A stretch of DNA of 64,000 nt from an uncultured Calditrichaceae bacterium. GTDB taxonomy: Bacteria > Calditrichota > Calditrichia > RBG-13-44-9. Positions 20,035-42,132 of the stretch are shown piece after piece. The position numbers and the translations under genes were made by a program. Numbering within the stretch: position 1 is the first letter of the stretch; each line of letters begins with the position of its first letter. Location: NCBI GenBank assembly GCA_964617285.1, contig CAZTXJ010000001.1, forward strand, positions 15,237-79,236, written 5' to 3'. Under the pieces are notes generated by a model. The model did not search any database. It saw only the letters and a list, made by a program, of their open reading frames with translations, and was not told the DNA's origin.

Positions 20035-20037
20035 AAA

Positions 20038-21978: not shown

Positions 21979-22070
21979 GATTTTTCGGAATAAACTCATA
22001 CATGGATGGAAAATGACACTGCCAGGAGGAATGATTGGTCTAGCAATTGTGGAATAGACCCGGTACATGT

Positions 22071-22107: not shown

Positions 22108-22182
22108 AAAAACCTTTAATAATTAACCAGGAGCAATAAGGTTATTGACAAAACCAACTACAAAACAAAGGAGGAAAAAGGC

Positions 22183-25583: not shown

Positions 25584-26913
25584 AGATTTCCAGTTTGCGG
25601 TACAACGTCTTTTTAGTGATGCCCAGCAGTTTAGCCGCTTTGGTTTTATTCCAATCTGTTTTCTGCAGGATTTTTATCAAATGCTTCATTTCGACATCGG
25701 TCAATGACTCATCTCCATTTTCAGCTTCCATCATCGGAGAAGGCAATTGGTGCTTTATATCGATGGGCAGATCAGCTTTTTGAATCTGATGGCCATCACT
25801 CAGGATTACCGCTCGTTCGATCACGTTCTCTAATTCGCGTACATTACCGGGCCAGGCATAACCATGCAGTAATTCCAGGGCCTCCGGGGTAATTTCACTT
25901 AAACATTTCCCGGTTTGAAAACAGATTTTCTTTAAACAATACTGTACCAGTATCGGAATATCTTCTTTTCTTTCTCTCAAGGGCTTCAATTCGATATTAA
26001 AAACATTCAGACGATAAAAGAGATCTTCCCTGAATTTCTCCTCTTTTAAAAGTTTTAAAAGATTTCGATTGGTTGCGGCGATAATCCGGACTTCACTGCG
26101 TAAGGTTTGGGTGCTGCCCACCGGCCGGTATTCCCCGCTCTCCAAAAATCGAAGCAGTTTGGTCTGGAAGCCGATACTCACGTCACCGATTTCGTCCAGG
26201 AACAGGGTACCCGAGTCGGCTACATCCACCAGCCCTCTTTTAAACTTGACTGCCCCGGTAAAGGCGCCTTTCTCGTGCCCGAACATCTCACTCTCCAGAA
26301 GCGTATCCTGGATGGCACTGCAGTTGACAATGACAAACGGTTTATCCATTCGCGGGCTCTTTTGGTGAATTGCTTTGGCAACCAGCTCTTTACCGGTGCC
26401 GGTCTCACCGGTTATCAAAACGGTTGAATTGGTCGGCGCCACTTTTTCAATCAAACCCATTATCTCATTGATGTGGCTACTGTTTCCCACGATTTCCGTA
26501 TATTTTTTTTGCTTATCCAGCTCACGCTTGAATATTTCACTATCTCTTTTTAACTGGGTTAATTCACCGGCCCGTTCGACCAGGATGATCAACTCTTCCA
26601 GATCGAAAGGTTTGATCAGGTAGTCATAGGCGCCCAGCTTCATGGAAGCGATGGCATTTTCGATGGTGGCATTTCCGGTCATCATAATGATCTGTGTGTC
26701 CTGGTAAATCCGTTTTAGATTTTTCAGGATTTCAATTCCGTCGATATCGGGCAATACAATGTCCAGCAGAACAATGTCAAAATTCTCCCGTTTGGCGATC
26801 TCTAAAGTTTCCTGCCCTGTTTTCGCTGCCACTGCGGTGAAACCCCGACGCTCAAACAAATGACATAAATGTTGCCGGAAGGAATCTTCATCGTCTACGA
26901 TCAGTAATTTCAT
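25567..26913 (-). CDS. Sigma-54-dependent response regulator (NtrC family)
   Basis: REC domain (LIVDDE, phospho-Asp), AAA+ domain with GETGTGKE and the GAFTGA loop, and a C-terminal Fis-type HTH. Confidence 0.9.
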   Translation of the reverse strand: MKLLIVDDEDSFRQHLCHLFERRGFTAVAAKTGQETLEIAKRENFDIVLLDIVLPDIDGIEILKNLKRIYQDTQIIMMTGNATIENAIASMKLGAYDYLIKPFDLEELIILVERAGELTQLKRDSEIFKRELDKQKKYTEIVGNSSHINEIMGLIEKVAPTNSTVLITGETGTGKELVAKAIHQKSPRMDKPFVIVNCSAIQDTLLESEMFGHEKGAFTGAVKFKRGLVDVADSGTLFLDEIGDVSIGFQTKLLRFLESGEYRPVGSTQTLRSEVRIIAATNRNLLKLLKEEKFREDLFYRLNVFNIELKPLRERKEDIPILVQYCLKKICFQTGKCLSEITPEALELLHGYAWPGNVRELENVIERAVILSDGHQIQKADLPIDIKHQLPSPMMEAENGDESLTDVEMKHLIKILQKTDWNKTKAAKLLGITKKTLYRKLEIYGIKK

Positions 26914-26947
26914 AGTATTTTCTCAGACTTAATTTATCAAATTATAA

Positions 26948-28600
26948 TTATGTAATTGAAGGTTCCCGGTAAACCGGTAAACTCAGGGTAAAGGTGCTGC
27001 CTTTTTTCGGCTGGCTTTCCACATGAATTTCACCACCCAGACTTTTGATGATCCGCAGACTAATCGGCAGTCCCAGACCAGTCCCCATGCCCGCCGGTTT
27101 TGTGGTATAAAAGGGCTTAAATATTTTACCCAAATTTTGTGGAGCAATTCCGCATCCTTCATCTTTTATTGTGACCTTTACCGAGGCATTCCCATCCATT
27201 TCGGAATTAATTTCAATAGTTTTGCCGGCGGGACTGAATTCCACTGCATTTAAGATCAGATTGAGGAAAACCTGGGAAAGGGTATCGGCCTCGCCCATGA
27301 TGAGCGGAATATTTCTGGCCAGATTCAATTTAATTTCCTTATGCTCTCTTTCGGCTTTATAGCGAATAAGCAGACGCACATTCTTGATCAATTGATTGAC
27401 ATCCAGCGGAACCCGGCGATGCTCGGTGCGCGGGGCAATATTGAGTAGACCAGTGGTAATCCGCTTGCAGCGCTGGATTTCATTTTTAATTGTCTCAATG
27501 TCTTCCAGAATTTCCACTGACTCCTTTTTTTCTCCCAAATTTTCCAGGAGCAGATCAGTCAATTCTTGGACACAGACTGCAATTGAGCTTAATGGATTGT
27601 TAATTTCGTGGGCGACGCCACTGGCAATCTCACCCATGGCTGCTAATTTACTGGTCTGGATGAGGTGCAGCTGCAGTTCCTTTTCTTCAGTAATATCCTG
27701 AATTAATTCCAGAATTTGATCCACTTTTCCTTTTTCATCGAACAGGGGTGCGGAGGTTATACGAAAATAGTGCGTTTGATCTTCCCCATCCATATACTCT
27801 GTTTCAAAATTTTCAATGGTGCCGTTCTTGAGGGACTTATCAATCGGATTTTCTAACCGGGTTTGTTTATTGTTAAACAGTTTAAAATTATCCGAGCCAA
27901 AGTGCTTATTTAGCGAACCAAACCATCTCTCGCTGACCTTATTCATCCAGATAATCTCTTTTTTCCGGTTTATTAATATCAATCCCGCATCTATTCCCAT
28001 CAGGATATTCGAAAGTTTGTTTTTTTCCTGCTCCAATTCGTTCCGGCGTTTTTCCAATTCTTCATTTAGTTTTTCGATACTCTTTTTATCGATTTCCTCT
28101 TTGCGGGACAACAGTCCCATGGACACACCCACCAGGATGAAAAAAACAATTCGTAATCCCAGCAGAACATAGTTCTCAGAGCTCACTGCAAAATTTCCAG
28201 CAGCCAGATAAATGAAAATTGATAGTAGTTGGACCCTGAATCCAAAAGATAATCCAAAATAAAAAGAGTGAAGTGCCACCAGCAGTAAAAAGGCCAGATA
28301 AAAATCACTTGAGTAGCCTCCGGTGAGGCGGACAAGCCAGAAGACAAAAATAAGATCGAGATAGAGAACCAAATTATACAGATAGCGAATCCGTTTGGGA
28401 TAGAGATAAATTAACAGATAAAGCAAGAGACTATAGATGAGAAAAAAGCCAAAATTTAAAAATAGCTCATGCTGATTGGCGGCGGGCATTTTGGACAGAA
28501 AAACCCAGAATATTCCCCCAATAAAGGCAAGGATCCTCAGCAAGGCAAACATCCTGTCCACCGAGGTCAATTTCTTTAACAACGAGGCCATTTTTATCAT
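26948..28600 (-). CDS. Sensor histidine kinase with polytopic N-terminal membrane domain, PAS, HisKA and HATPase
   Basis: Six to seven N-terminal TM helices, then a PAS-like region, an H-box (AHEINNPL) and N/G1/G2 boxes. Confidence 0.85.
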   Translation of the reverse strand: MIKMASLLKKLTSVDRMFALLRILAFIGGIFWVFLSKMPAANQHELFLNFGFFLIYSLLLYLLIYLYPKRIRYLYNLVLYLDLIFVFWLVRLTGGYSSDFYLAFLLLVALHSFYFGLSFGFRVQLLSIFIYLAAGNFAVSSENYVLLGLRIVFFILVGVSMGLLSRKEEIDKKSIEKLNEELEKRRNELEQEKNKLSNILMGIDAGLILINRKKEIIWMNKVSERWFGSLNKHFGSDNFKLFNNKQTRLENPIDKSLKNGTIENFETEYMDGEDQTHYFRITSAPLFDEKGKVDQILELIQDITEEKELQLHLIQTSKLAAMGEIASGVAHEINNPLSSIAVCVQELTDLLLENLGEKKESVEILEDIETIKNEIQRCKRITTGLLNIAPRTEHRRVPLDVNQLIKNVRLLIRYKAEREHKEIKLNLARNIPLIMGEADTLSQVFLNLILNAVEFSPAGKTIEINSEMDGNASVKVTIKDEGCGIAPQNLGKIFKPFYTTKPAGMGTGLGLPISLRIIKSLGGEIHVESQPKKGSTFTLSLPVYREPSIT

Positions 28601-28775: not shown

Positions 28776-29285
28776 TTAAACCGGGAGACTAACCATTTGG
28801 TTGGTCAGAATCCGGTCTATGTGTGCCTCAACCTCCCGCAAAACCTCCGGGTAAATAGTCTGCAATTCTGGTGATAAACCCTCCCGTATTTCATGTTTCT
28901 CATGAATTACAATCCCGACTATGGAGAGTTGCTCAGGCATGGACATCTGGTAATGATTTCCCAGCGCAACCAGACTGCCCAGACCGATAAAATGGGGAGA
29001 TGCACCTTTGGGTATTTCCTGGAGTGGTTCAGGTTTCAGAAACTGGATCTCCCCCAACGGCTTTTGGTCATTAATGATAGCGTCTACAATGATAACCTGG
29101 TCAAAACCAATAAATTGATCCAGTAAATATAGACCGGCCTGGGAGCTGATTTCAAATTCTAAAGCAGCCGAGTCTGTAAAATGTTCTTTGAGATCCTGAA
29201 CAATCCGGATACCAATACCGTCGTCACCTAAAACCGGATTACCCAGACCCAGTACCAGATTTTCTTTTAGAGCAGATGTTAAAAT
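28776..29285 (-). CDS. [NiFe] hydrogenase maturation endopeptidase (HycI/HoxW/FrhD family); start codon non-canonical or gene disrupted
   Basis: The tracked ORF (28776-29057) is only the C-terminal half. The in-frame upstream translation gives ...LVLGLGNPVLGDDGIGIRIV..., the conserved N-terminus, back to a stop at 29301-29303. No ATG/GTG/TTG is available there; an ATT sits at 29285 with a GGGGTG six nt upstream. Confidence 0.55.
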   Translation of the reverse strand: MLTSALKENLVLGLGNPVLGDDGIGIRIVQDLKEHFTDSAALEFEISSQAGLYLLDQFIGFDQVIIVDAIINDQKPLGEIQFLKPEPLQEIPKGASPHFIGLGSLVALGNHYQMSMPEQLSIVGIVIHEKHEIREGLSPELQTIYPEVLREVEAHIDRILTNQMVSLPV

Positions 29286-29324
29286 TAAAGCACCCCAGAT
29301 TTAATAATATTTTTATTTAGAAAC

Positions 29325-30800
29325 TTAACGAGTAATTCGGCGAATTAATTCTCCCTTTTGGTTGTAAATTTCCGCATACAGCGGCATTTCCCCCGGGAGT
29401 GCGTGTGTGGCACAGGCATGACAGGGATCGTAAGCCCGGAAGGCCATTTCCACCTTATTTAAAATGCCATCGTCCACATGACCATCGCGAATTAAACTGC
29501 GCGCTGCTTTATCCACAGACATGGCGATTCTGCCTGCATTATTCTGGGTGGCTACAATTAGATTCGCTTTCTGGATCACACCACGCTCATCGGTTTGATA
29601 GTGATGGAATAGCGTTCCTCTGGGGGCTTCCACACAACCAATTCCTTCTTTTGGGGTCATATCGGGAATAGCGCGAATATGCTTGCTGGTGATTTCGGAA
29701 TCGCTGGCGAGCTCAAGCATTCTTTCGGCAGCGTAAAGCATCTCGACCAGGCGAGCCCAGTGGTTTGCCAGGGTAAAATGGACTGGTTTTCCACCCAGGG
29801 TCTCAAAATAGCGCTTATAATATTCTTCTGCCTGCGGGGTAGCCATGCCCTCGGCGGCATTCAAACGGGCCAGCGGGGCAACACTATATATCCCGGAACC
29901 ATTTCCATCGTTAAATCCGTCCCAGCCAACATTTTTAAGGTAGGGGAATTTTACGTAGCTCCATGGTTCCACATGTTCCAGGATTTGATTTAAATACTCC
30001 TGGGCCGGAAATTTGACAAATTCCTCCCCATTGGGAGCAACTACCCGGATCTTTCCATCATAAAAATTGACCTGATTTTGTTCGTCGACCAATCCCATAT
30101 AATAGGTATGATGGGTATAGGCATCGGAGGTGATCAGATTGAGATATGTGGAATTTGCCAGAACAACGTCATCGAATATCTTAAGGGCAAATAAGGCAAA
30201 ATTAATACCTTCCTTGGCCACGGCTTCGAAACGCTGCCGGACTTCTTCTTTCATTTGTTTGGAAACTCCTCCCGGTAAACCCAGAACCGGATGAATAACC
30301 TTTCCGCCCATCTCGGTGATTAATTCCCTTAACTCCCGGCGCATACCAATCACTTTTTTCCCGACATCCAATCCTACTTTTTGCAGTACGCCTAAAATAT
30401 TGCGATCCGCTTTCGGAGCATCCGGCCCGGTCACAAAATCCGGACCGCCCAGGAAGAAGAAATGCAGGGCATGGTCCTCCAGCATAAAGGTGTTGTAGAC
30501 CAGCTCACGGATTTTTTTCGCGGTCTCTGTCGGTTCCACTTTGTATAAATCATCCAGGGCCTTTGTCCCGGCCATATGATGGGCAGTGGGGCATACCCCG
30601 CAAATTCGTGAAGTGATCTGGGGCATATCCTCTGCCGGACGCCCTTCGCAGAATTTTTCGAATCCCCGCAGTTCCGGGACCTGGAAATAGGCCCGCTCCA
30701 CATTACCGGTGTCATCCAGAAAAATGGATATCTTACCGTGTCCTTCGAGTCTGGTGATTGGATCAATTACAATTTTTTGTGCCATCAGGATTACTCCCAA
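29325..30800 (-). CDS. mvhA: [NiFe] hydrogenase large subunit, group 3 (Mvh/F420-non-reducing type)
   Basis: N-terminal RLEGHG and RICGVCPTAH motifs. C-terminal DPCHACATH, followed by a roughly 25-aa cleavable extension. Confidence 0.85.
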   Translation of the reverse strand: MGVILMAQKIVIDPITRLEGHGKISIFLDDTGNVERAYFQVPELRGFEKFCEGRPAEDMPQITSRICGVCPTAHHMAGTKALDDLYKVEPTETAKKIRELVYNTFMLEDHALHFFFLGGPDFVTGPDAPKADRNILGVLQKVGLDVGKKVIGMRRELRELITEMGGKVIHPVLGLPGGVSKQMKEEVRQRFEAVAKEGINFALFALKIFDDVVLANSTYLNLITSDAYTHHTYYMGLVDEQNQVNFYDGKIRVVAPNGEEFVKFPAQEYLNQILEHVEPWSYVKFPYLKNVGWDGFNDGNGSGIYSVAPLARLNAAEGMATPQAEEYYKRYFETLGGKPVHFTLANHWARLVEMLYAAERMLELASDSEITSKHIRAIPDMTPKEGIGCVEAPRGTLFHHYQTDERGVIQKANLIVATQNNAGRIAMSVDKAARSLIRDGHVDDGILNKVEMAFRAYDPCHACATHALPGEMPLYAEIYNQKGELIRRITR

Positions 30801-30862: not shown

Positions 30863-31858
30863 TTAATCTTTGCTGGATTCCTGAACCGGATTTTGATGAA
30901 AGGTTTTTCGCTTCAAAAGTGAAGCAGGTAACCCGTAACGGTAAAAAGTGCCAACCGGATCGACAAATTTATCAAAAAGTCGCTGAATTGATTCTTCATC
31001 GCTGTAATCCACAATGGAGGCCAGGCCGGAAAGTGCTTTGGCACCCTGATCTTTAACCCGGCTGGTAGGGCCAAAACAACCGGTACAGGGCATATTCCCG
31101 TTAACACACAAAGCTCCGCATCCGCTCCGGGTGGCCGGTCCCATACAAAAAATGCCCTGCGCCAGAAGGCATTTTTCCGGATCGATTTCCACTTCCTGGA
31201 CGCGCTTGAGATCTTTGATCAACAACTTTTCCGGTTTGCTCTGATTCCTATCGCATTCGTCACACAGCGCTTTATCCGGAGACAGCACGGTACCCTTTGG
31301 TGGCAGTTCACCCTTTAAAATGGTTTGAATGGCTTCCAGTAACAACTTCGGGGTAGGTGGGCATCCCGGGAGATAATAGTCTACCTCGACCAGATCATGC
31401 AGATGTTTTACTGTATCAAAAAATTCCGGGAGATGCAAATCATGTCCGTTCATCGATGCATCTTCCAGCGGCACCACCTGATTATTTTCCTGCAGGGAAG
31501 GGACCTCATGGTAGACGCGGTTGAAAATACTTTCTTTGTTCCACAGATTACCCAGCCCCGGTATGCCGCCAAGATGTGCGCAGCTACCAAAAGCAATGAT
31601 CATCTTGGATTTGCGTTCCAGAAGGTAAACCATTTCCTCCTGTTCACCCAGACGGATGGCCCCATTTATGAAAGCGACATCAATTTCTTTATCCTGCATT
31701 TTAGCCACATCTTCTTTTTTGAAATCGAGGGCGACCGGCCAGAAAACAATATCGACTGCTTCAACCACATCCAGAATGTTTTCGGCGAGATCGACCACCG
31801 CTTCCTCACAACCACCGCAACTGGCGCACCAATAAAAAGCAACTTTGGGTTTTGACAT
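30863..31858 (-). CDS. mvhG: [NiFe] hydrogenase small subunit, group 3 (MvhG-like)
   Basis: N-terminal FYWCASCGGCEE proximal-cluster motif. Additional Cys clusters at the C-terminus. Confidence 0.8.
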   Translation of the reverse strand: MSKPKVAFYWCASCGGCEEAVVDLAENILDVVEAVDIVFWPVALDFKKEDVAKMQDKEIDVAFINGAIRLGEQEEMVYLLERKSKMIIAFGSCAHLGGIPGLGNLWNKESIFNRVYHEVPSLQENNQVVPLEDASMNGHDLHLPEFFDTVKHLHDLVEVDYYLPGCPPTPKLLLEAIQTILKGELPPKGTVLSPDKALCDECDRNQSKPEKLLIKDLKRVQEVEIDPEKCLLAQGIFCMGPATRSGCGALCVNGNMPCTGCFGPTSRVKDQGAKALSGLASIVDYSDEESIQRLFDKFVDPVGTFYRYGLPASLLKRKTFHQNPVQESSKD

Positions 31859-32466: not shown

Positions 32467-35400
32467 CTAAACCATAAGTCCTTCTATTTCGGAGAATATC
32501 TGTTCGTCCAGATAGAGATGCTGGCGTGCAGCGCCACTCGGACAGGCGGAGACACAAGTGCCGCATCCCTTGCAAAGTACCTCGTTAATAACCGATATGG
32601 CCTTCTCCTTGTCGAAGCTGATGGCAGTGTAAGGACAGAGAGAGACGCAGGTTTGACAACCGGAACAGTACTCTTCTTCGATCCAGGCGGTATTTGGTTC
32701 CAGCTCCACCTCGCCGCGATCGATAAGAGCAAGGGCTTCCGCGGCGGCGGCACCGGCCTGGGCTACGGTATCCGGAATGTCTTTTGGCGATTGGCAAGCA
32801 CCGGCCAGGAAAATTCCGTCTGTGGCAGTAGAAATCGGTGCTAATTTGGGATGTCTCTCCAGGAAAAATCCCTCATTACTGCAGGAGATATTGAAGATTC
32901 TCCGGATTTCATCCGCATCGGGTTGTGGTTCCAGACCGGTTGAAAGGATAACCATATCCACTGGTATTCGTCTTACCATACCAATCAGTGTATCCTCAAC
33001 CCGAATCACCAGTTTGCCCTCCTCGGAAGGATCCAGGGGTACGTCACTGACTTCGGCAACCCGTCCCCGGATCATGTGCGCCCCTTCTTCCAGTATCCGA
33101 TCATAGAACTCTTCATATCCTTTACCAAAGGTTCGCATATCAATATAGAAGTTATAGACCTCGGCATTTGTTCGCTCGTGCATCAGATGGGCAAATTTAA
33201 GTGAGTACATACAGCAAACCCGGGAGCAGTACCGGTTATGATTTTTGTCGCGCGATCCCACACAATGAATTATTCCCACTGACTTGGGTTTTCCTCCATC
33301 CCGTAAAATAATTTCACCACCGGTGGGTCCGGCAGCATTGATCAGCCTTTCCACTTCCAAGCTGGTGTAGACATTGGCCAGTTTTTTATAACCATAATGC
33401 GGGATTTTTTCGGCATCGAAAGATTTAAATCCAGTGGCGATGATTATGGAGCCGACATCGATCTCTTTTATCTCATCCTTTTGGTGATAATCGATAGCCT
33501 TTGCTTCGCAGGTATTAACACATAACTCACAGTCGCAGCAACCGGCGCAGGCCAGACAACGATTGGCTTCTTCGATGGCCATCTCTTCCGTGTAGCCCTG
33601 GTGTACCTCGTCGAAGGACTTCCTTCTCTCAATCTCAATGGCCGGAATTTCAACCCGCCATTTTACCGGAATACCCTCGGTATCAAATTCAAAACTTGGT
33701 TCGAAAGGACCTTCCAGTTCCCGACCCTCGCTCATATCCTCACTTTTGAGATAACGATCAATAGAGATGGCAGCTTTCCGACCGGCAAACATGGCATTGA
33801 CCACTACATCAGGACCCGATACACAATCTCCTCCGGCAAAGATGCCTTCGATATTTGTTTCCAGAGTGACCGGGTCGGCTGCAAATGTATCCCATTGTGT
33901 TACAGTCAGGCCCAGCCGGTCCTTAAGTGTCTCCAGTTCCGGCATCTGACCGATGGTGACGATGACTGCGTCGCAAGGCAGGATGAACTCGGATCCCGGG
34001 ACAGGTACCGGTCGTCGGCGACCACTTTCGTCCGGATGGCCTAATCGGGTGCGAATGCATTCCAGTCCCGCTACATGTGTTGAGCCCATAAACTGACGGG
34101 GCATGGCATTGAAATAAATGCGGATACCTTCTTTTTCTGCTTCCCGGATTTCCAGTTCGTCAGCCGGCATTTCATTTCTGCCCCGGCGGTAAACAATGGT
34201 AACCTCTTCCGCATCTGTGCGCAGGGCGGTCCTTGCCGCATCGATGGCCGAATTACCACCGCCAATGACCAGAACCTTTTTGCCCAGTTTCACTTTCTCA
34301 CCACTGTTCACTCGCTTGAGAAAATCAATTCCACCCCAGATTCCATTCAGGATTTCATTGGGAATATTTAAGCTCCGCTCCTTACCACAGCCAATGGCCA
34401 GGTATACTGCCTGATATTTTTCTTTGAGCTGTTTTAAGGAAATGTCTCGTCCAATCTTGGTATTTAATTTTATGTTTACACCGGTTTCCTCAATACGACT
34501 GATTTCTTCATTCAGGATGTGACGGGGTAACCGGAATGCGGGAATACCCATCCATAACATTCCACCCGGCATCTGATTCGCTTCATATATCTGTACCTGA
34601 TAACCCCGATGTCGTAATTCGTAAGCACACATTAATCCTGAAGGACCGGATCCAACAATCGCCACCTTTTCTTTTCTCTGAATCGCCGGATCTGGTTTTG
34701 GCAAGCTGAATTGGCCAACATGGTCTGTGACAAAGCGTTTAAGTGCCGGAACATTAATGGCGTCATCAACCTTATTTCGCGAGCACATAGACATACACGG
34801 ATGCGAGCACACCCGGCCACAAATTGCCGGAAGGGGATTATCCCGGAGAATAACCTCCAGTGCCTCTTCAAACCGGCCCCCGGCGATCAATTTAATATAT
34901 GCCTGTGCATTCTGATGTAAGCTGCAGGTTGCCTGGCAGGGTGGCATCCCTTTACGGGAAATGGTATAGGTGTTCGGTACCGATTGAGGAAATGGCCGGT
35001 AAATGGCTTTGCGGGTTCCCAGGCCTTCGTCAAATTCGGAGGGTATATCCACCGGACAGACCTTCACACATTCACCACAGCCGGTGCATGCTTCTTCGTT
35101 TATAAATCTAGCTTTCTTTTTAACTTTCACCTTAAAGTTGCCAACATAACCATCCACGCCTTCCACTTCAGAATAAGTCATGAGTTCTATATTTGGATGT
35201 GCGGCTACTTGGGTCATTTTTGGGGTCAGGATACAAGCCGAGCAATCCAGGGTGGGAAAAGTTTTATCGAATTTTGCCATATGGCCACCGATGGATGGCT
35301 CCCGTTCGATCAGATAAACCTTTTTCCCGGCATCTGCCATCGTAAGAGCGGCTTGTATTCCAGCGATTCCTCCACCAATGACCATGGTATCCGGATGCAC

Positions 35401-35841
35401 CGGCACTGATCGTTTCTTAAGGGGCTCGTGAAAGTATACCCGCTTAACGCCTGCTGAAATCAGGGCTTTTGCTTTATCGGTCGCCTGGACTTTATCCAGG
35501 GTTACCCAGGACACATGTTCCCGGATATTTGCCATCTGGAAGAAATAGGGATTTTCACCACCTTCCCGGACAGCCCTGCGGAAGGTCACTTCATGCATCA
35601 GGGGCGAACAGGATGCAACCAGCACCCGGTTCACACCTAATTCTTTAATATCCTTTTTGATTAAATCCTGGCCGGGATCGGAACACATAAATTTATACTC
35701 CCGGGCAATTTCGACATGGGGAAGTGTCTGGGCGAATTCCACCACTTCGGATATATCAACCTTGCCAGCGATGTTTGCTCCACAGTGACAAATGTAGACG
35801 CCAATTTTGATATCACCATTGTTGTTCATTTTAGTCTCCAT
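32467..35841 (-). CDS. hdrA: HdrA-like heterodisulfide reductase flavoprotein with an inserted complete GltD/NfnB-like NAD(P)H-FAD module (1124 aa)
   Basis: HdrA N-terminal Cys domain. First Rossmann fold VIGGGIAGIQAAL, inserted ferredoxin CTGCGECVKVCP, HdrA core (CVGSRD, CSRVCC) and C-terminal 2x4Fe-4S. Between these, at about 33740-34950, lies a GltD-like module: CGRVCSHPC...C Fe-S, VAIVGSGPSGLMCAYEL FAD, VLVIGGGNSAIDAA NAD(P)H and GGDCVSGPD. Confidence 0.75.
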   Translation of the reverse strand: METKMNNNGDIKIGVYICHCGANIAGKVDISEVVEFAQTLPHVEIAREYKFMCSDPGQDLIKKDIKELGVNRVLVASCSPLMHEVTFRRAVREGGENPYFFQMANIREHVSWVTLDKVQATDKAKALISAGVKRVYFHEPLKKRSVPVHPDTMVIGGGIAGIQAALTMADAGKKVYLIEREPSIGGHMAKFDKTFPTLDCSACILTPKMTQVAAHPNIELMTYSEVEGVDGYVGNFKVKVKKKARFINEEACTGCGECVKVCPVDIPSEFDEGLGTRKAIYRPFPQSVPNTYTISRKGMPPCQATCSLHQNAQAYIKLIAGGRFEEALEVILRDNPLPAICGRVCSHPCMSMCSRNKVDDAINVPALKRFVTDHVGQFSLPKPDPAIQRKEKVAIVGSGPSGLMCAYELRHRGYQVQIYEANQMPGGMLWMGIPAFRLPRHILNEEISRIEETGVNIKLNTKIGRDISLKQLKEKYQAVYLAIGCGKERSLNIPNEILNGIWGGIDFLKRVNSGEKVKLGKKVLVIGGGNSAIDAARTALRTDAEEVTIVYRRGRNEMPADELEIREAEKEGIRIYFNAMPRQFMGSTHVAGLECIRTRLGHPDESGRRRPVPVPGSEFILPCDAVIVTIGQMPELETLKDRLGLTVTQWDTFAADPVTLETNIEGIFAGGDCVSGPDVVVNAMFAGRKAAISIDRYLKSEDMSEGRELEGPFEPSFEFDTEGIPVKWRVEIPAIEIERRKSFDEVHQGYTEEMAIEEANRCLACAGCCDCELCVNTCEAKAIDYHQKDEIKEIDVGSIIIATGFKSFDAEKIPHYGYKKLANVYTSLEVERLINAAGPTGGEIILRDGGKPKSVGIIHCVGSRDKNHNRYCSRVCCMYSLKFAHLMHERTNAEVYNFYIDMRTFGKGYEEFYDRILEEGAHMIRGRVAEVSDVPLDPSEEGKLVIRVEDTLIGMVRRIPVDMVILSTGLEPQPDADEIRRIFNISCSNEGFFLERHPKLAPISTATDGIFLAGACQSPKDIPDTVAQAGAAAAEALALIDRGEVELEPNTAWIEEEYCSGCQTCVSLCPYTAISFDKEKAISVINEVLCKGCGTCVSACPSGAARQHLYLDEQIFSEIEGLMV

Positions 35842-37383: not shown

Positions 37384-37401
37384 TGGCAAATCGTATGCCC
37401 G
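37384..37401 (-). promoter_or_regulatory. Candidate sigma-54 (-24/-12) promoter for the hdrCBA-mvhDGA operon
   Basis: Minus-strand reading cgGGCATacgatTTGCCa. GG and GC have consensus spacing, TTGC is exact, and there are three mismatches to TGGCACG. Predicted transcription start is near 37374, about 37 nt before the hdrC start. A divergent NtrC-type regulator is adjacent. Confidence 0.4.
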
Positions 37402-37700: not shown

Positions 37701-39365
37701 ATGCGTATCAGAGCTAAATCACACATTGGTGCCTTTACAAGATCATTAAGTTTTAAACTCCTCCTGATCCTGTTAACAATCATGTTTTTATTTTTCGCCT
37801 TCTATGTAGTTCTTTATTCAACTATGCAAAAGCGAATCTATGAGCATACAATTGAATTGGGAGCTTATCGGAACAGTGATATTATTAAGAATGCCCTCTA
37901 TCGACTGATGCTCAAAAATGAACGGGAGGAGCTTTTTAATACCATAAAGATTATTGGTAATGAACCCGGTCTTGAAGATATTCGGATTTACAATAAAAAG
38001 GGAGAGATTACTTACTCGACAAATGAATCCGAAACCGGAACAGTGGTAGACATGAGAGCCGAAGCCTGCTATGCCTGTCATGCAGCTAATGAACCTATAC
38101 AATCACTGCAGACCGAGGATAAAACCAGAATATATGAAGGGCCCAAGGGTTATCGGATTATGGGAATGATAAATCCCATCAGAAATGCGCCTGAATGCAG
38201 TAATCAGGTCTGCCATGCTCATAATCCCGAACAGACAATTTTGGGTGTTCTTGATGTCAGGATGTCACTCAACGAACTGGATCAGGCGGTTTTCCAGACT
38301 AGGGTTGCAGCAATTTCTCTCTCCTTTGGCCTGACAATTTTAGCCCTGGTCTTATTTTCCATCATGGTATATATCATCATTTATCGACCGATAAAAACGC
38401 TTCAGGCCGGTACAGTCAGGCTAGCGGTTGGTGATCTCGATTATCGAATTGACATGAAGCGCAGGGATGAGTTAGGAATGCTGGCTCAGTCATTTAATAA
38501 TATGGCAGAGAATCTGAAAAAGGCATATCAGGAATTAAAAGACTGGTCCAACAAACTGGAAAAACGAGTGGATGAAAAAACCGATCAATTGGAGAAGATG
38601 CATAAGGGGCTAATTCATGTGGAGAAGATGGCCTCACTCGGTAAAATGGCCGCTTCCGTAGCCCACGAGTTGAATAATCCCCTGGCTGGTATCGTTACTT
38701 ATTCGAAATTAATTCAGAAAAGAATCCGGAAAAACGGGACCTCACCAGAAGATCTAAAGAAAATTATCAATGAGTTGGAACTGATCAGTTCGGAATCCAT
38801 GCGTTGCGGAAATATCGTCCGGAATCTTCTTGCCTTCGCCCGGGAAACCTCGGCAAACTTCCAGGAATTTAATATTGAAGAGATCATAAATCGTGGATTG
38901 GAAATCCTGAGTCATCATATGCAATTGGCGGGGGTGGAATTTGAAAAAAACATACGGGTAACATCCAAGAAATTGTTTTGCGATGCCGAACAAATGGTGC
39001 AGGCGCTGATTGCTTTATTCGTTAATGCAGTGGAAGCCATGCCGGATGGAGGAACTTTAAATATCACTGTGGAAGACATCCCGGAGAAACCTTCCTGGAT
39101 GAGAATAAAGATTGCCGATACTGGTATAGGAATTTCAGCGGAAACCCTGGACAAGATTTTCGAACCATTTTTTACCACCAAGGAGGAAAAGAAGGGCGTT
39201 GGTCTGGGTTTGCCGGTGGTCTATGGCATTATTCAGCGACACCAGGGCAAAATTCGGGTGGAATCTGAAAAAGGTAAAGGCAGTACCTTTATCATTGAAT
39301 TACCCCGGCAGCAAACCGGGTTAGTGGAAGAAAGAGAAAGGGGTGATGAAGATGAAACCGTATAA
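37701..39365 (+). CDS. Sensor histidine kinase with periplasmic domain carrying c-type haem motifs, HAMP, HisKA and HATPase
   Basis: TM1, a roughly 165-aa periplasmic region containing CYACH (CxxCH) and CSNQVCH (Cx4CH), TM2, HAMP, then H-box AHELNNPL and N/G boxes. Confidence 0.8.
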
Positions 39366-40692
39366 AATCTTAATCGTGGATGATGAGTTATCGGTGCGAA
39401 CTTCCCTGAAGGAATGGTTTCTTGAGGAAGGATTTACTGTGGAAACTGCAGAAAGCGGGGAAGATGCTCTGAATAAGATGCATACCGGTCCCTACGATTT
39501 AATCCTGCTGGATATTAAGATGCCTGGTATGGATGGCATCACCCTGCAAAAGAAGATCAAGGAAATTGATGAGGATGCCATCATCATTATCATGACCGCT
39601 TATGCCTCGGTGGATACCGCGGTTGAAGCACTTAAATTGGGTGCTTTCGATTATGTGACCAAGCCATTCGATCCCGATGACCTCTCCCAGCTCATCAGAA
39701 ATGCACTGAAACAAAAAGAATTGACTTCAGAGAATGTTCAGTTAAAGGAGAAAATTTCCGAACTATCCGGAGTGGACGATATTATTGGCCAGAGTGAAGA
39801 AATGAAACGAGTTTTTGAGATGGTTGATACTGTGGCGGAAACGGATTCTACCGTCCTGATCCGGGGTGAAAGTGGAACCGGAAAGGAACTTATCGCCAGG
39901 GCAATTCATAGCCGGAGTAAGCGAAGGTATTTTCCGATTGTGGCAGTGAATTGTGGGGCCATACCGGAAACATTATTGGAGAGCGAACTTTTTGGTCACG
40001 AGAAAGGGGCTTTTACCGGCGCCCAATACCGGCGCAAGGGAAAACTGGAACTGGCAAATGGCGGGACACTCTTCCTGGATGAAATCGGGGATATTTCATT
40101 CAAAATGCAGATAGATTTATTGCGCGTCCTCGAGGGCAAAAGATTTACCCGATTAGGTGGATCGGATGAAATCCAAGTTGATTTTCGGCTTATTTGTGCT
40201 ACCAATAAGAATTTGGAAAAATTAGTGGAGGAAGAAAAATTCCGGGAGGATCTATACTACCGGATTAATGTATTTTCTATTTTTCTGCCACCGTTAAGAA
40301 AAAGAAAAAGCGATATCATTATGCTGGCCAACCACTTTATCCAGAAATATGCAAGATCTATGGGTAAGCCGAAGAAGTCGATAGCTTCTAATGTGCAGGA
40401 AATGATGCTGGAATACTCCTGGCCGGGAAATGTGCGAGAACTGGAAAATGCCATTGAGCGAGCTATGGTCATTGGTAAGGGACCGGAAATTACCATTGAA
40501 GATCTGCCCCTTCATATAAACACAACTGAAAAATCGAATTCCGGTAAGGTGAAGCTATCCGATCTGGAGAAAGATCATATTCTGCGCATATTGGAAGAGA
40601 CCGGTGGAAATGTGACCAAAGCGGCCAATCTTTTGGGTATTGATCGGGTGACTTTATATAACAAAATGAAAAAATACGGTGTCAAGCGTTAA
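39343..40692 (+). CDS. Sigma-54-dependent response regulator (NtrC family)
   Basis: REC, AAA+ (GESGTGKE, GAFTGA) and Fis HTH. Start may be at [12 protein letters not shown]. Overlaps the kinase stop. Confidence 0.9.
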   Translation: MMKMKPYKILIVDDELSVRTSLKEWFLEEGFTVETAESGEDALNKMHTGPYDLILLDIKMPGMDGITLQKKIKEIDEDAIIIIMTAYASVDTAVEALKLGAFDYVTKPFDPDDLSQLIRNALKQKELTSENVQLKEKISELSGVDDIIGQSEEMKRVFEMVDTVAETDSTVLIRGESGTGKELIARAIHSRSKRRYFPIVAVNCGAIPETLLESELFGHEKGAFTGAQYRRKGKLELANGGTLFLDEIGDISFKMQIDLLRVLEGKRFTRLGGSDEIQVDFRLICATNKNLEKLVEEEKFREDLYYRINVFSIFLPPLRKRKSDIIMLANHFIQKYARSMGKPKKSIASNVQEMMLEYSWPGNVRELENAIERAMVIGKGPEITIEDLPLHINTTEKSNSGKVKLSDLEKDHILRILEETGGNVTKAANLLGIDRVTLYNKMKKYGVKR

Positions 40693-41245: not shown

Positions 41246-42034
41246 CTAAGTAAAGATTTGCTTCAGCAACCTTTCAAAGTTATCCGTACCGATTATTTTT
41301 TCCAAATCTACCTGAAGATGCCCACCATCCGCCAAAGTTTCGCCAATGTTAGCCGGAATGGATTCTTGCAAGCTATCCCACAGCAGATTTTTTAATAAAT
41401 TCACTTTTTTGATGTAAAACTGCAGTCCGGCCAATTCATTACATTTATTCTGTATTTGCTGACCGATTCCTTTTTTAGACATCTTAAATAAATATTTATC
41501 TTCTTCAATCACATGCTCGAATCCCGTTACGGTAAACTCGGGATTGATTTCTGAAATTTCACCTCCAATGGGTGCATGAAGAGGCAGGGTTTTTCCTTTG
41601 CGGAATATCCATGCCATTAATTGGCCCTTATGAAAGGAATCTCCCTCTTCCGGTAAAATGATCCGGTCCACCGGAGAGATCGTTTTGACTACCAGTTTAT
41701 CCAGACCAATGAGAATAGCATCCTCTGTTTCCTTCTGACACCAGAAATAATTGGATTGATAACAATGGTCCAGATAAAATCTGCATCCGGCAAAAAGTGA
41801 AGAAAAATACTGTTGAATCCAGTTGTTTATCTTTTCATCTTCCCGACTAGCTTCCTTTTTCTGATACTCCGGTTGGGATGGATTCTCTCTGTTCTCATGC
41901 ACCAAAATTCCCTGCATCACTTTATCGAATTCACATGTTTCACATTCAAAATTATGATCGCAGAGTTTATAGTTAACAATTCCGGCAGACATCCAGATAC
42001 ATTTTAAGCTTGCTTTATTTGTATGGGATCTCAT
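41246..42034 (-). CDS. GcvH-like (lipoyl-carrier fold) protein with N-terminal Cys4 cluster, cytoplasmic paralog
   Basis: C-x12-C-x5-C-x2-C at the N-terminus. Central K...HAPIGGEISEINPEF region like the GcvH lipoyl hairpin. The C-terminal extension contains a LADGG motif shared with two paralogs. Confidence 0.45.
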   Translation of the reverse strand: MRSHTNKASLKCIWMSAGIVNYKLCDHNFECETCEFDKVMQGILVHENRENPSQPEYQKKEASREDEKINNWIQQYFSSLFAGCRFYLDHCYQSNYFWCQKETEDAILIGLDKLVVKTISPVDRIILPEEGDSFHKGQLMAWIFRKGKTLPLHAPIGGEISEINPEFTVTGFEHVIEEDKYLFKMSKKGIGQQIQNKCNELAGLQFYIKKVNLLKNLLWDSLQESIPANIGETLADGGHLQVDLEKIIGTDNFERLLKQIFT

Positions 42035-42132
42035 TTTTTCACCATTTTGCTTATTGATTCGTTATGCTCGATTCAGTTCCATGGATCCTTTTGTCTTATT
42101 CCTGACTGGCCACAAAAATGTGTGGCCAGTGT

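Follow-up and report, generated by a model that had tools for sequence, protein, structure and literature searches.

A circularly permuted GltD/NfnB-like cassette within the inserted ferredoxin domain of an HdrA from a Calditrichota-like bacterium

The window (the whole 64-kb stretch of DNA analyzed) carries an operon with the order hdrC-hdrB-hdrA-mvhD-mvhG-mvhA-protease (Table 1). The hdrC product has two CxxCxxCxxxCP motifs (C43-C53 and C87-C97), and the hdrB product has two complete CCG motifs (C10, CC42/43, C78xxC81 and C154, CC192/193, C228xxC231). MvhD, of the FlpD family, has cysteines at positions 11, 14, 40, 65 and 70. The MvhA motifs RIC67GVC70 and DPC460HAC463 contain Cys throughout and no Sec, and the true start of mvhA is likely M6. 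The protease-like ORF has no canonical start codon upstream of its conserved N-terminal motif; a homologue also follows mvhA in locus L081 and in Caldithrix abyssi (L082), where its product gives a weak match to HycI. The MvhADG-HdrABC-type setting claimed by the initial annotation is borne out by the Pfam and NCBIfam assignments of HdrC, HdrB, MvhD, MvhG and MvhA. These genes show that the locus encodes a predicted cytoplasmic complex of this type, combining a group 3c-type [NiFe] hydrogenase with a heterodisulfide-reductase-like module. No CoM/CoB, DsrC or other disulfide-substrate candidate was found linked to the operon, and it encodes neither an NfnA/NfnS-type [2Fe-2S]/FAD partner nor a GltB partner.

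The GGCAT-N5-TTGC element upstream of hdrC is the only match on either strand of the window. A match lies at the equivalent place upstream of hdrC in L081 but was not found there in C. abyssi. Both kinase/regulator pairs near the operon have a like arrangement in L081. At most, the motif is suggestive of a sigma-54 promoter.

Table 1. Features of the hdr-mvh locus and its surroundings (positions in the window)
Feature	Position	Strand	Basis or remark
Sigma-54-dependent response regulator, downstream of operon	25567-26913	-	Pfam
PAS histidine kinase, downstream of operon	26948-28600	-	Pfam
Hydrogenase maturation protease-like ORF (LGLGNPVLGDDGIG...)	28776..29300	-	translation
mvhA, [NiFe] hydrogenase large subunit	29325..30800	-	NCBIfam VhuA 1.5e-122 and VhuU-like C-terminus
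mvhG, 331 aa, group 3c-type [NiFe] hydrogenase small subunit	30863..31858	-	Pfam Oxidored_q6; NCBIfam VhuG 1.4e-66
mvhD, 153 aa	31934..32395	-	Pfam FlpD 6e-56; NCBIfam VhuD
hdrA, HdrL / type III kind	32467..35841	-	1124 aa, 42 Cys, two predicted FAD sites
HdrA C-terminal part, aa 768-1124	32467..33540	-	aligned to 8rvu_a 301-652
Circularly permuted GltD/NfnB-like cassette, aa 297-767	33541..34953	-	junctions from alignment with insertion-less HdrA and PDB HdrA 8rvu_a
Permuted NfnB "N-terminal" helix with Cys pair, aa 739-767	33541..33627	-	Fer4_20 profile 1-39 at aa 739-781, E 2.7e-5
GltD/NfnB body, aa 300-700	33742..34944	-	Fer4_20 profile 30-108 at aa 300-375; Pyr_redox_2 at aa 392-687 (E 1e-50)
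NADPH-type motif G527-G-G-N-S-A532 ... V-Y551-R-R-G-R555	34177..34263	-	conserved in alignments A1 and A2
Insert FAD dinucleotide motif G397-S-G399-P-S-G402	34636..34653	-	translation; invariant in 93 homologues
HdrA N-terminal part, aa 1-296	34954..35841	-	aligns with 8rvu_a 6-304, 5odc_A 5-297, E 1e-116
hdrB, 297 aa	35869..36762	-	Pfam CCG 8.5e-27, two stretches; TIGR03288 8e-60
hdrC, 200 aa	36765..37367	-	Pfam Fer4_8/9/17; NCBIfam CoB_CoM_SS_C
Sigma-54 promoter-like element GGCAT-N5-TTGC	37386..37399	-	~20 nt upstream of hdrC start codon
HAMP histidine kinase, divergent from hdrC	37701-39365	+	Pfam
Second sigma-54-dependent response regulator, divergent from hdrC	39343-40692	+	Pfam

The hdrA gene is one uninterrupted ORF, and Pfam places HdrA elements on both sides of Fer4_20 and Pyr_redox_2. 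NCBIfam gives the same picture: positions 1-295 of the HdrA2 profile align to aa 12-304, positions 292-651 of the HdrA profile align to aa 759-1123, and the GltD-type PRK12771 spans aa 292-798 with 544 bits (cut-off, 516 bits). In a PDB sequence search, HdrA 5odc_A matches aa 12-297 and ~768-1123, and NfnB/NfnL/GltD chains match aa 300-701. The N-terminal HdrA part comprises a domain with C18, C20, C53 and C78, the beginning of the TrxR-like FAD fold (G156-G161, with C200/C203 also in this part) and, within the inserted ferredoxin domain, its motif 1 (C252, C255, C258, C262); these cysteines and G156-G161 are invariant in homologue alignment A2. The C-terminal part resumes in the inserted ferredoxin domain with its motif 2 (C768, C771, C774, C778), after which come the remainder of the FAD fold, containing E831 and K882, then C860/C872/C876/C877 and the 2x[4Fe-4S] domain (C1059-C1100). 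Mapped on 5odc_A, E831 and K882 are the M. thermolithotrophicus E356 and K409, a pair that, by the criterion as quoted in PMC9430772, is the signature of a bifurcating FAD. The claim that every HdrA element is kept therefore holds, down to this pair.

Between motifs C252-C262 and C768-C778 lies a cassette of 471 aa with an FAD fold, an NADPH-type fold and two [4Fe-4S] sites. The complete GltD/NfnB-type unit proposed initially is confirmed by Pfam, NCBIfam and the PDB search. The site, however, lies outside the FAD domain proper, where it had been placed: it is in the inserted ferredoxin domain, which faces ferredoxin. The extent given in the initial annotation (33740-34950, aa ~298-701) matches the GltD body, which has Fe-S cysteines C302, C306, C341, C345, C349 and C353 followed by the FAD and NAD(P)H folds, and which aligns to NfnB 4ylf_B residues 46-462 and NfnL 5jca_L residues 50-473. 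The full insert continues to aa 767, because a linker and a permuted NfnB N-terminal helix come after the body. This helix (...RRKSFDEVHQGYTEEMAIEEANRC762LAC765AG), which closes the insert on its C-terminal side, is where NfnB 4ylf_B residues 15-43 and NfnL 5jca_L residues 6-46 align.

The cassette is thus circularly permuted rather than a straight NfnB-type copy, with Fer4_20 profile positions 1-39 found after positions 30-108. Chains 9bov_A and 8oh5_C have the same permuted order, so that their alignment with the cassette is contiguous. Identity is 44% to NfnA of C. saccharolyticus NfnABC (9bov_A; rmsd 2.6 A) and 38-40% to the bifurcating NfnB/NfnL chains. The permutation means that the polypeptide both enters and exits the cassette at its exit cluster, whose ligands C762 and C765 are three residues ahead of C768 in the HdrA cluster motif.

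The AlphaFold2 model of HdrA is a single body (pLDDT 89, pTM 0.80), which superposes on HdrA chains 5odc_A, 8rvu_A and 7bkb_A (Foldseek TM-score, target-normalized, 0.89-0.92) and on NfnA 9bov_A. Full-length homologues form at least 120 clusters (56-99% identity). In 93 homologues, the HdrA Cys motifs, both Rossmann Gly motifs and the eight Fe-S cysteines of the insert are invariant, except for C341, which is kept in at least 90%. This conservation indicates a real protein. An artefact (chimeric assembly, two genes read through as one or a pseudogene in decay) is rejected as practically inconceivable: the frame is open over 1124 codons, the ligands are conserved among the homologue clusters, the structure model is confident and cultured C. 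abyssi, whose genome is complete, also has the gene. We found no point in favor of an artefact.

It is important to note that the fusion of HdrA with a GltD/NfnB-like module is already known. The same architecture was published in 2009 as HdrL, an ANME-1 HdrA with an NfnB-like insertion was published in 2022, and "type III HdrA", including a Bathyarchaeota cluster with mvhADG, was published in 2025 (PMC12054007). The hdrA described here is a new bacterial member of this HdrL / type III group. Relatives that match over the full length are spread across many phyla of bacteria and archaea, and C. abyssi has the same hdrA in the same operon. Loci of the HdrL / type III kind were also recovered in this analysis (L001-L061). 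The HdrA scaffold is nearer to insertion-less bacterial HdrA than to Desulfobacterales/archaeal HdrL (100/100 bootstraps), and the insertion is not monophyletic on the scaffold. Together, the scaffold and cassette trees are compatible with independent acquisition of the cassette. In other HdrA lineages, a NuoEF-like NADH module splits HdrA at the identical site. What is added here is the insertion site, the permutation, the proximity of the exit cluster, the non-monophyly and the NuoEF-like module at the same site.

The HdrA elements, the GltD/NfnB unit and the Mvh-Hdr operon are most naturally read as an enzyme that would link H2, NAD(P)(H) and a disulfide, and this hypothesis has been published for the archaeal type III HdrA with mvhADG (PMC12054007). 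In canonical Hdr, ferredoxin docks at the inserted ferredoxin domain and receives the low-potential electron from it, and models of type III HdrA place GltD at this site, probably blocking ferredoxin (PMC12054007; PMC9430772). Our somewhat favored overall model is that the HdrA FAD would bifurcate electrons from H2, passing them to a disulfide and to NADP+, with NADP+ replacing ferredoxin. The architecture and wiring are very probably right: NADP(H) would exchange electrons with the cassette FAD and, through the two cassette clusters and the two clusters of the inserted ferredoxin domain, with the HdrA FAD. The latter, which keeps the E/K signature, would be the sole bifurcating site, and the cassette FAD would act as a plain two-electron/one-electron converter, comparable with NfnA of NfnABC and StnA. 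The homologous FAD of NfnABC sits at the chain end, takes NADPH and is not the bifurcation site (PMC11829005).

The initial annotation implied that both modules bifurcate, and two bifurcating flavins have been speculated upon for ANME-1 HdrA-NfnB fusions (PMC9012536). R437 does correspond to T. maritima NfnB R187, which hydrogen-bonds N5 of the bifurcating FAD, and the identity to bifurcating NfnB/NfnL could be read in the same sense. Nevertheless, two sites in series on one polypeptide are very improbable. The closest permuted relatives, NfnA and StnA, are chain-end NADPH entry sites whose FAD is incompatible with bifurcation (PMC11829005), the cassette is a generic plug-in of many unrelated Fe-S proteins, and the operon has no NfnA/NfnS-type partner, hence no second exit from the cassette FAD.

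The cassette nucleotide is probably NADP(H) rather than NAD(H). The cassette shares its GGGNxA ... YRR pattern with NfnL of P. furiosus, whose structure entry has NADP(H) bound, and with NfnA of C. saccharolyticus and StnA of S. ovata, and the homologous domain binds NADPH (PMC11829005). For the archaeal form, NAD rather than NADP has been argued from a GxGxxG motif (PMC12054007).

Electron flow from H2 to NADP+ and disulfide is a tentative assignment, held at slightly under even odds. MvhA would oxidize H2, with electrons entering via MvhG and MvhD. From each pair, one electron would pass downhill via HdrC to the two clusters of the HdrB CCG domains and reduce the disulfide; the second would go up the hard-wired branch to NADP+, in place of free ferredoxin, giving a net reaction of 2 H2 + NADP+ + RS-SR' -> NADPH + H+ + RSH + R'SH. 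A point against the model is that H2 can reduce both NADP+ and a disulfide at standard conditions, so bifurcation would be required only at low H2. If the model is true, NADPH could be made from H2 at H2 pressures too low for direct reduction of the NADP pool.

The opposite direction, which has been proposed in print, is unlikely. NAD(P)H would be the mid-potential donor, reducing the cassette FAD, then the inserted ferredoxin domain and then the HdrA FAD, from which electrons would bifurcate to disulfide and, via MvhD, MvhG and MvhA, to protons, with H2 evolved. Against our model, formation of H2 and thiols from NADH has been proposed for the Bathyarchaeota type III HdrA with the same gene content (PMC12054007). 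In the GltD-interrupted HdrA of M. thermoacetica, the module takes in electrons from NADH at a high rate (190 U/mg with benzyl viologen as acceptor; PMC9430772), which favors NAD(P)H as donor, and the homologous module is the NADPH input in NfnABC and Stn (PMC11829005). Further, C. abyssi ferments peptides, and its genome paper names the group 3c enzyme a candidate for H2 production from reduced ferredoxin. However, the two branches of a conserved HdrA scaffold would have to exchange roles, whereas close insertion-less relatives keep identical hdrCBA-mvhDGA synteny, in agreement with an exchange of the low-potential partner that left the type of reaction as it was. All biochemically characterized group 3c hydrogenases oxidize H2 in cells (PMC11216029), the NADPH-type motif makes loss of anabolic reductant as H2 less attractive, and a fermenter would need a steady supply of disulfide.

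Still less probable is that the cassette is an extra or alternative input, with H2 or NAD(P)H reducing free ferredoxin and disulfide, perhaps in an HdrA/HdrL heterodimer that would offer a single site each for ferredoxin and NAD(P)H. HdrA is dimeric in solved complexes (PDB entry titles and chains), an insertion-less hdrA lies directly upstream of the insertion-bearing gene in several loci (L008, L037, L042), and the present HdrA keeps its C-terminal ferredoxin domain along with every canonical cluster. But the operon has only one hdrA, published models set GltD over the ferredoxin site (PMC12054007), and the ligands of the exit cluster adjoin those of the inserted ferredoxin domain in sequence, suggesting a dedicated wire and not an open docking surface.

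Among known systems, the nearest is HdrL (Desulfobacterium autotrophicum, Syntrophobacter fumaroxidans), equivalent to type III HdrA (ANME-1, Bathyarchaeota). In these too, a GltD/NfnB-like FAD, NAD(P)H and Fe-S module of ~470-500 aa breaks the inserted ferredoxin domain and mvhD comes next; the Bathyarchaeota form is also clustered with mvhADG. In contrast, the host here is a Calditrichota-like bacterium with a full hdrCB-hdrL-mvhDGA-protease operon that lacks selenocysteine, insertion-less bacterial HdrA is the nearer relative of the scaffold, and the motif is GxGxxA with YRR (NADPH-like) instead of the GxGxxG reported for archaeal forms. MvhADG-HdrABC of hydrogenotrophic methanogens (5odc, 8rvu) shares the subunit set, all HdrA, HdrB and HdrC cofactor motifs and the E356/K409 signature, but lacks the 471-aa NADPH module in the ferredoxin-facing domain, and here NADP+ probably replaces ferredoxin. 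As the host is not a methanogen, CoM-S-S-CoB is an unlikely substrate. The NfnL-like domains of NfnA in NfnABC of the Bfu type (9bov of C. saccharolyticus, 9n5u of T. sibiricus) and of StnA (S. ovata 8oh5) have the same order, body and then "RCLxC" helix, and the NADPH-type motif; there the module is the terminal NADPH:Fe-S entry site, but it sits in a formate-dehydrogenase-like subunit and feeds an HydBC-type FMN bifurcation site. NfnB/NfnL of NfnAB (NfnSL) and GltD share the fold, cofactors and R187 equivalent (TM-score, target-normalized, 0.77-0.81), although their order is not permuted. With the permuted order and no NfnA/NfnS or GltB partner, the cassette alone is not expected to bifurcate. 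Finally, in the MetFV-HdrABC-MvhD complex of Moorella thermoacetica, a GltD domain also interrupts the TrxR-like HdrA domain, and this is the only GltD-interrupted HdrA with a measured activity (PMC9430772). That HdrA, however, is a 163-kDa tandem whose second half has no inserted ferredoxin domain, and its complex works without a hydrogenase, with methylene-THF reductase; tandem HdrA of this kind occurs in loci L047, L051, P0158 and P0164 but not in the present window.

Domain profiles divide the window HdrA into three parts. Pfam places Fer4_20 (the DPD/GltD-type Fe-S domain) at aa 300-375 and Pyr_redox_2 at aa 392-687 (E 1e-50), with HdrA-type FAD and ferredoxin motifs on either side of this GltD-like region. 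The NCBIfam HdrA profiles align to aa 12-304 and aa 759-1123, and the GltD-like family PRK12771 aligns to aa 292-798 with a score above its curated cut-off. A sequence search of the PDB returned HdrA chains for the two ends (E about 1e-110 to 1e-116 for the N-part and the C-part alike) and NfnB, NfnL, GltD, and DPD chains for the middle. The scaffold (i.e., HdrA minus the GltD/NfnB-like cassette) retains the thioredoxin reductase (TrxR)-like FAD fold, the N-terminal domain, the inserted and C-terminal ferredoxin domains, and six [4Fe-4S] cysteine sets. Given the profile and PDB matches at both ends and the invariance of the HdrA cysteines, the initial annotation was right that every HdrA element is kept; Pfam, PRK12771, and the PDB search also agree on a complete GltD/NfnB-type unit with Fe-S, FAD, and NAD(P)H folds. 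The insert coordinates proposed at that stage, 33740-34950, delimit the GltD body, and we place the full insert at aa 297-767 (33541-34953). The possibility that the middle region is just a duplicated thioredoxin reductase fold is ruled out by the GltD/NfnB scores (E 1e-79 to 1e-121) and the presence of an NADPH motif. The HdrA-GltD fusion is correct but already described: there are prior accounts of this kind of HdrA (Strittmatter et al.; Chadwick et al.), known as HdrL or type III HdrA, and the Calditrichota example is a further bacterial case of a biochemically uncharacterised type.

The site of the insertion can be read from the cysteines of the inserted ferredoxin domain. Motif 1 is C252/C255/C258/C262, motif 2 is C768/C771/C774/C778, and the extra sequence is everything between them, from about K296 to C768. 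Close insertion-less HdrA proteins read ...FPQATPKVVLID-PQTC-x7-C-x3-C-AESC-DRKAIDF... at this point, and the corresponding place in Methanothermobacter marburgensis HdrA is C301-x2-C304-x2-C307-x3-C311. Judged from these motifs, the cassette is located in the inserted ferredoxin domain and not, as first thought, in the FAD fold proper, into which the ferredoxin domain is itself an insertion. An insertion at the equivalent location has been described for ANME-1 HdrA and for type III HdrA (the latter in PMC12054007).

The cassette does not have the linear order of its relatives. Its body, from P-P-C302 onward, aligns to Thermotoga maritima NfnB 46-462 and Pyrococcus furiosus NfnL 50-473, and the N-terminal helix and Cys pair of those proteins (RRRNFEEVALGYTLEEALEEAQRCLQC) align after the body, to aa 738-766 (ERRKSFDEVHQGYTEEMAIEEANRC762LAC765). 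The two halves of the Pfam Fer4_20 profile give the same order as independent evidence, with profile positions 30-108 at aa 300-375 and positions 1-39 at aa 739-781 (E 2.7e-5). Body and helix are contiguous in Caldicellulosiruptor saccharolyticus NfnA (9bov_A) and Sporomusa ovata StnA (8oh5_C), over residues 23-498 of the 529-aa cassette query (window aa 299-774); T. sibiricus NfnA (9n5u_A) agrees in order, its helix matching as a second, weak and separate segment. In structural comparison, too, these NfnA and StnA chains match the insert best (44% identity and rmsd 2.6 A for 9bov_A). On these alignments the cassette is a circular permutation relative to NfnB/GltD.

The permutation has a geometric consequence. 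The polypeptide passes into the cassette at C302 and out of it after C765, and C768, in the HdrA cluster motif, follows C765 by only three residues. We take the equivalents of C302 and C765, by analogy with DPD and NfnB, to adjoin in NfnB, where they would ligate one outer cluster. From the permutation and the three-residue spacing together, the outer cassette cluster and an inserted-ferredoxin-domain cluster are predicted to be neighbours. An AlphaFold2 model of HdrA forms one confident body (pLDDT 89, pTM 0.80; 81-89 over the linker at aa 701-740) with TM-scores, normalised to the target, of 0.89-0.92 to complete HdrA chains. Sequence and structural searches of the PDB found no solved structure containing the fusion.

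At the HdrA flavin, E356 and K409 of Methanothermococcus thermolithotrophicus (5odc_A) correspond to E831 and K882, both invariant in the alignment of 93 homologues (A2). This Glu/Lys pair is a criterion for separating bifurcating from non-bifurcating HdrA (PMC9430772), and with the pair, the clusters, and adjacent hdrB and hdrC all present, the protein appears to belong to the bifurcation-competent HdrABC class. In the cassette, the second Rossmann motif is G527-G-G-N-S-A532, a GxGxxA variant, followed by VYRRGR. The GGGNSA...YRR pattern is common to P. furiosus NfnL, C. saccharolyticus NfnA, and S. ovata StnA in our alignments, and NADPH is stated to bind the corresponding cassette domain (PMC11829005); we therefore predict NADP(H) as the cassette nucleotide. 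For archaeal type III HdrA, NAD has been argued from a GxGxxG motif (PMC12054007).

The initial annotation implied two flavin-based bifurcators in one protein. The cassette FAD would then be a second bifurcating or confurcating flavin, in series with that of HdrA on one polypeptide, and the enzyme could set H2, NADP(H), and a disulfide against one another, perhaps along with a fourth partner. Retention of the NfnB-type arginine speaks for this: R437 (GIPAFRLP) aligns to R187 of T. maritima NfnB (GIPEFRLP, 4ylf_B), the Arg hydrogen-bonded to N5 of the bifurcating FAD. The residue is kept in at least 90% of homologues and is not specific to bifurcating members, and alone it is no proof of bifurcation by the cassette FAD. 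In the nearest solved cassette relatives the flavin is an NADPH chain terminus, described as "incompatible" with bifurcation (PMC11829005), and no gene for a second exit partner of the NfnA/NfnS type ([2Fe-2S], FAD, and NAD binding) was found among the annotated ORFs at about 14.9-48.8 kb of the window. For these two reasons the HdrA flavin would be the only one that bifurcates, and we consider two bifurcating sites very unlikely.

The operon supplies the remaining partners. On the same strand, hdrC and hdrB lie upstream of hdrA, and mvhD (FlpD-family, starting 71 nt downstream of hdrA), mvhG, mvhA, and a hydrogenase maturation protease-like ORF lie downstream, with intergenic gaps of 2-75 nt. 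HdrB has both CCG motifs and HdrC both [4Fe-4S] ferredoxin motifs, and MvhA carries RICGVC and DPCHAC, i.e., both CxxC nickel-binding motifs with Cys and not Sec. The best NCBIfam models for the hydrogenase subunits are VhuA, VhuG, and VhuD, all under their equivalog cut-offs. The motifs, the clustering with hdr genes, these sub-cut-off models, and the assignment of the Caldithrix abyssi orthologue, placed in group 3c in its genome paper (PMC5317091), point to a group 3c [NiFe] (MvhADG) type. No ATG, GTG, or TTG occurs upstream of the conserved N-terminal motif of the protease-like ORF in its stop-to-stop frame, and the ORF may be damaged, or its initiation may be from a rare codon such as ATT or CTG; its orthologues in C. 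abyssi and in L081 (the locus of an 85% relative) are called genes of 173-175 aa.

Features of the hdrA region in the window, and the ORFs of the split hdrA at a Verrucomicrobiota locus (L065)
Feature	Coordinates	Strand	Remarks
Histidine kinase and sigma-54-dependent response regulator pair	25567-28600	-	one operon flank
Hydrogenase maturation protease-like ORF	28776-29300	-	after mvhA; …LVLGLGNPVLGDDGIG…
hdrA (HdrL kind)	32467-35841	-	one uninterrupted ORF, 1124 aa
Sigma-54 promoter-like GGCAT-N5-TTGC	37386-37399	-	about 20 nt upstream of hdrC start codon, correct strand
Histidine kinase and sigma-54-dependent response regulator pair	37701-40692	+	other operon flank
GcvH-like tandem pair	41246-44967	-	262 and 253 aa, ~85-aa N-terminal extensions; adjoin NrfD-like membrane protein and 4Fe-4S dicluster protein
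L065 ORF 1			HdrA N-half and NuoE-like [2Fe-2S] domain
L065 ORF 2			NuoF/HydB-like FMN protein
L065 ORF 3			Fer2_4, 4Fe-4S segment, and HdrA C-half

The sigma-54-like element upstream of hdrC is the sole match to GGCAY-N5-TTGC in the 64 kb window, where about one match is expected by chance, so it is its position within the 334-nt intergenic region, not its uniqueness, that is suggestive. A match occurs at the equivalent place in L081 and none at the corresponding C. abyssi site. The flanking kinase/regulator pairs are likewise kept in L081 and not in C. abyssi. Two other neighbourhoods deserve mention. The GcvH-like pair, of the lipoyl-carrier type, was considered as a possible operon-linked dithiol/disulfide partner and rejected, because regulators lie between it and the operon and the C. 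abyssi flanks hold no counterpart. The stretch at 17644-24230 (+) encodes a Fer4_5 membrane Fe-S protein, a hemerythrin/PAS_10/DUF438 protein, a DUF1858-DUF2249 protein, a methyltransferase, a hemerythrin, a dihaem-type cytochrome c, and a COX1-family oxidase/NO-reductase-like subunit, and by its gene content looks like an NO or O2 sensing/detoxification region beside the hydrogenase operon.

A search of 5.8 billion proteins recovered at least 120 clusters of full-length HdrA relatives (about 1100-1150 aa, 56-99% identity), with source labels that include Acidobacteria, Verrucomicrobia, Armatimonadetes, Hydrogenedentes, Sumerlaeia, WOR-3, Deferrimicrobium, and one MSBL1 archaeon. Alignments of 24 and 93 homologues show conservation of all HdrA cysteine sets, of the eight cassette cysteines, and of both dinucleotide motifs; C341 (at least 90%) is the one position among them that is not invariant. 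The 77%-identity cluster includes Calab_3046 of the cultured C. abyssi DSM 13497, whose genome has the identical order hdrC-hdrB-hdrA-mvhD-mvhG-mvhA-protease, with operon proteins 62-82% identical to those of the window; the hydrogenase genes of the C. abyssi cluster are Cabys_1914-1916.

Among the matches listed in a survey of one genome per species, at least 61 loci bear the insertion (Dehalococcoidia, Desulfobacterales, Aminicenantes, Acetothermia, Actinomycetes, Vicinamibacteria, Saprospiraceae, Firmicutes, Bathyarchaeia, Hadarchaeota, and Hydrothermarchaeales). At least 19 (L062-L080, including the split hdrA of L065) are without the GltD cassette, mostly with hdrCBA-mvhDGA synteny, in Acidobacteria, Verrucomicrobiota, Elusimicrobia, Omnitrophota, Bacteroidales, and Planctomycetota. 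The arrangement hdrCB-hdrL-mvhDGA occurs in at least nine surveyed loci (complete in L018, L020, L023, L029, L033, L036, and L053; interrupted by a contig end in L007 and L031), plus L081 and the C. abyssi locus (L082).

Other arrangements were also seen. In the Chloroflexota/Hadarchaeota loci L008, L037, and L042, an insertion-less hdrA lies directly upstream of an insertion-bearing hdrA and mvhD, and such tandem pairs suggest HdrA/HdrL heterodimers. L047 and L051 encode fused proteins of about 1450-1500 aa, in which an HdrA that is GltD-interrupted and truncated at its N-terminus is joined to a second HdrA, the arrangement known from Moorella thermoacetica. An Acetothermia locus (L004:7001-15503) has an insertion-bearing hdrA, then a free-standing GltD-like gene, then mvhDGA, with hdrCB not nearby. 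In five loci (L002, L005, L006, L010, and L058), mvhD was not detected, and hdrCB and an insertion-bearing hdrA come downstream of a [NiFe] hydrogenase pair only distantly similar to MvhA and MvhG (26-28% identity).

A neighbor-joining tree of the scaffold (620 columns, 100 bootstraps) groups the window HdrA with all 12 complete insertion-less HdrA of the surveyed set, which share its operon synteny, apart from Desulfobacterales and archaeal HdrL, in 100 of 100 replicates; no split divides insertion-bearing from insertion-less proteins. With the cassette alone as query, a full HMMER scan of 1.84 billion 50%-identity representatives gave 26,042 matches (4,945 at E <= 1e-30), and 98 of the best 150 have no HdrA part. 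These contexts include a stand-alone 546-aa protein and fusions to TPP_enzyme_C, to Fer4_5, and to extra ferredoxin/polyferredoxin segments. Tandem HdrA (1300-1500 aa) also occur, as do proteins of about 1130-1270 aa in which the cassette occupies ~100-580, the placement seen in NfnA/StnA. Most of these architectures appear uncharacterised. In a distance-based tree of 216 cassettes, all 100 bootstrap replicates place the window cassette with one or more non-HdrA cassettes and away from the HdrL cassettes of Desulfobacterales and archaea, and no replicate unites all HdrA-embedded cassettes in one group. A single origin of the insertion is rejected on both trees, which as distance trees (not maximum likelihood) do not fix the number of gains or losses. 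From the trees and the survey, the permuted cassette would therefore be a mobile NAD(P)H:Fe-S plug-in that HdrA has, provisionally, probably gained or exchanged more than once. For archaea a like inference was drawn in 2025 (PMC12054007), with which our result agrees and which it extends to bacteria.

A second type of module occurs at the same site. In L065:6895-11953, from a Verrucomicrobiota MAG with otherwise similar synteny, hdrA is divided into three ORFs with gaps of 13 and 15 nt between them, the break following motif 1 of the inserted ferredoxin domain. Full-length homologues of ORF 1 fall into at least 120 clusters, and all those listed carry the NuoE-like domain. The same three genes occur in a Sumerlaeia locus (L083:9001-14088), after etfBA and hdrD/hdrCB-like genes, with no hydrogenase in the fetched 9-kb flanks. 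We found no description of a NuoEF-split HdrA in the literature searched, a set outside which PMC11237513, mentioning HdrA and NuoEF, falls. A split at the GltD insertion site speaks for the ferredoxin-facing domain as the point at which pyridine-nucleotide modules are connected. This domain may be a general socket into which a permuted GltD cassette or a NuoE-NuoF-NuoG-like set has been plugged independently several times, a reading better supported than that of two bifurcating flavins. If it is true, there is a family of bifurcating Hdr complexes that are linked to NAD(P) and do not depend on ferredoxin.

In the mechanism that we propose, electrons would pass between the NADP(H) site, the cassette flavin, the two cassette clusters, the two inserted-ferredoxin-domain clusters, and the HdrA flavin with its bifurcation signature. 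The inserted ferredoxin domain is the one that serves ferredoxin in canonical enzymes (PMC12054007, PMC9430772), and the other branches from the HdrA flavin (MvhD-MvhG-MvhA and HdrC-HdrB) are intact in sequence. H2 would be the donor, NADP+ would take the place of ferredoxin as low-potential acceptor, and a disulfide would be the high-potential acceptor. Of the interpretation first advanced, the architecture and the idea of three substrates agree with the sequence; the FAD-domain location and the implied second bifurcator do not.

We favour the H2-donor direction on four grounds. Close insertion-less relatives have the same operon, which argues for a swap of partner; characterised group 3c hydrogenases oxidise H2 in cells (PMC11216029); and an NADPH-type site suits a biosynthetic product. 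The fourth ground is energetic. Standard potentials are -414 mV for H2, -320 mV for NAD(P)H, and about -140 mV for heterodisulfide (PMC5861303). By our reasoning, at low H2 the reduction of a highly reduced NADP pool would turn uphill, and coupled disulfide reduction would meet its cost. The main rival is the published scheme, in which NAD(P)H is oxidised to yield H2 and thiols. It has a precedent in the NADH input of the Moorella enzyme, and the present data do not separate it from H2 as donor.

If the H2-donor model is right, NADPH production from H2 at the expense of a disulfide, at H2 levels that make direct reduction uphill, is hard-wired and widespread, being found in numerous uncultured phyla from soils and sediments. 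Because the cultured, genome-sequenced C. abyssi has a close orthologue in the same operon, the long-standing question of the role of HdrL (type III HdrA) and of its disulfide substrate outside methanogens is approachable by ordinary biochemistry, and the permutation and junction geometry single out C762, C765, and the GGGNSA motif for mutation. The value of the window case lies in an uncharacterised enzyme type with a cultured host and in the details of permutation, junction, and plug-in site.

Several described systems bear comparison. NfnAB/NfnSL shares the N5 Arg (R437) with the window protein, which is permuted relative to the linear helix-FeS-FAD-NADPH order and is without an NfnA/NfnS gene. 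The NfnA (of NfnABC)/StnA module shares the body followed by an R..F.EV...EA.RCL.C helix, FAD and two [4Fe-4S] clusters, and the NADPH site; the Fdh/NuoG-like fusion and HydB/HydC-like partners found there are absent from the window HdrA and its operon. The MetFV-HdrABC-MvhD complex of M. thermoacetica contains an HdrA with a GltD-interrupted TrxR domain and has an NADH:benzyl viologen activity of 190 U/mg (PMC9430772). HdrABC/HdrL was detected by proteomics in Syntrophobacter fumaroxidans with sulfate present (PMC5947623). In its relevant passages, the C. abyssi genome paper notes hdr genes upstream of the group 3c hydrogenase and does not mention the insertion (PMC5317091). The 2025 survey that introduced the name type III HdrA modelled the GltD domain beside the inserted ferredoxin domain, where it may block ferredoxin, and inferred that archaea acquired the insertion in two separate events; mvhADG is part of the type III hdrA cluster of Bathyarchaeota, and electron flow from NADH to heterodisulfide and H2, or the reverse, was proposed (PMC12054007). 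The window HdrA has a GxGxxA motif in place of the GxGxxG reported there, and shares with HdrL (type III HdrA) the GltD/NfnB-like domain within the inserted ferredoxin domain, the NAD(P)H-type Rossmann motif, and the downstream mvhD.
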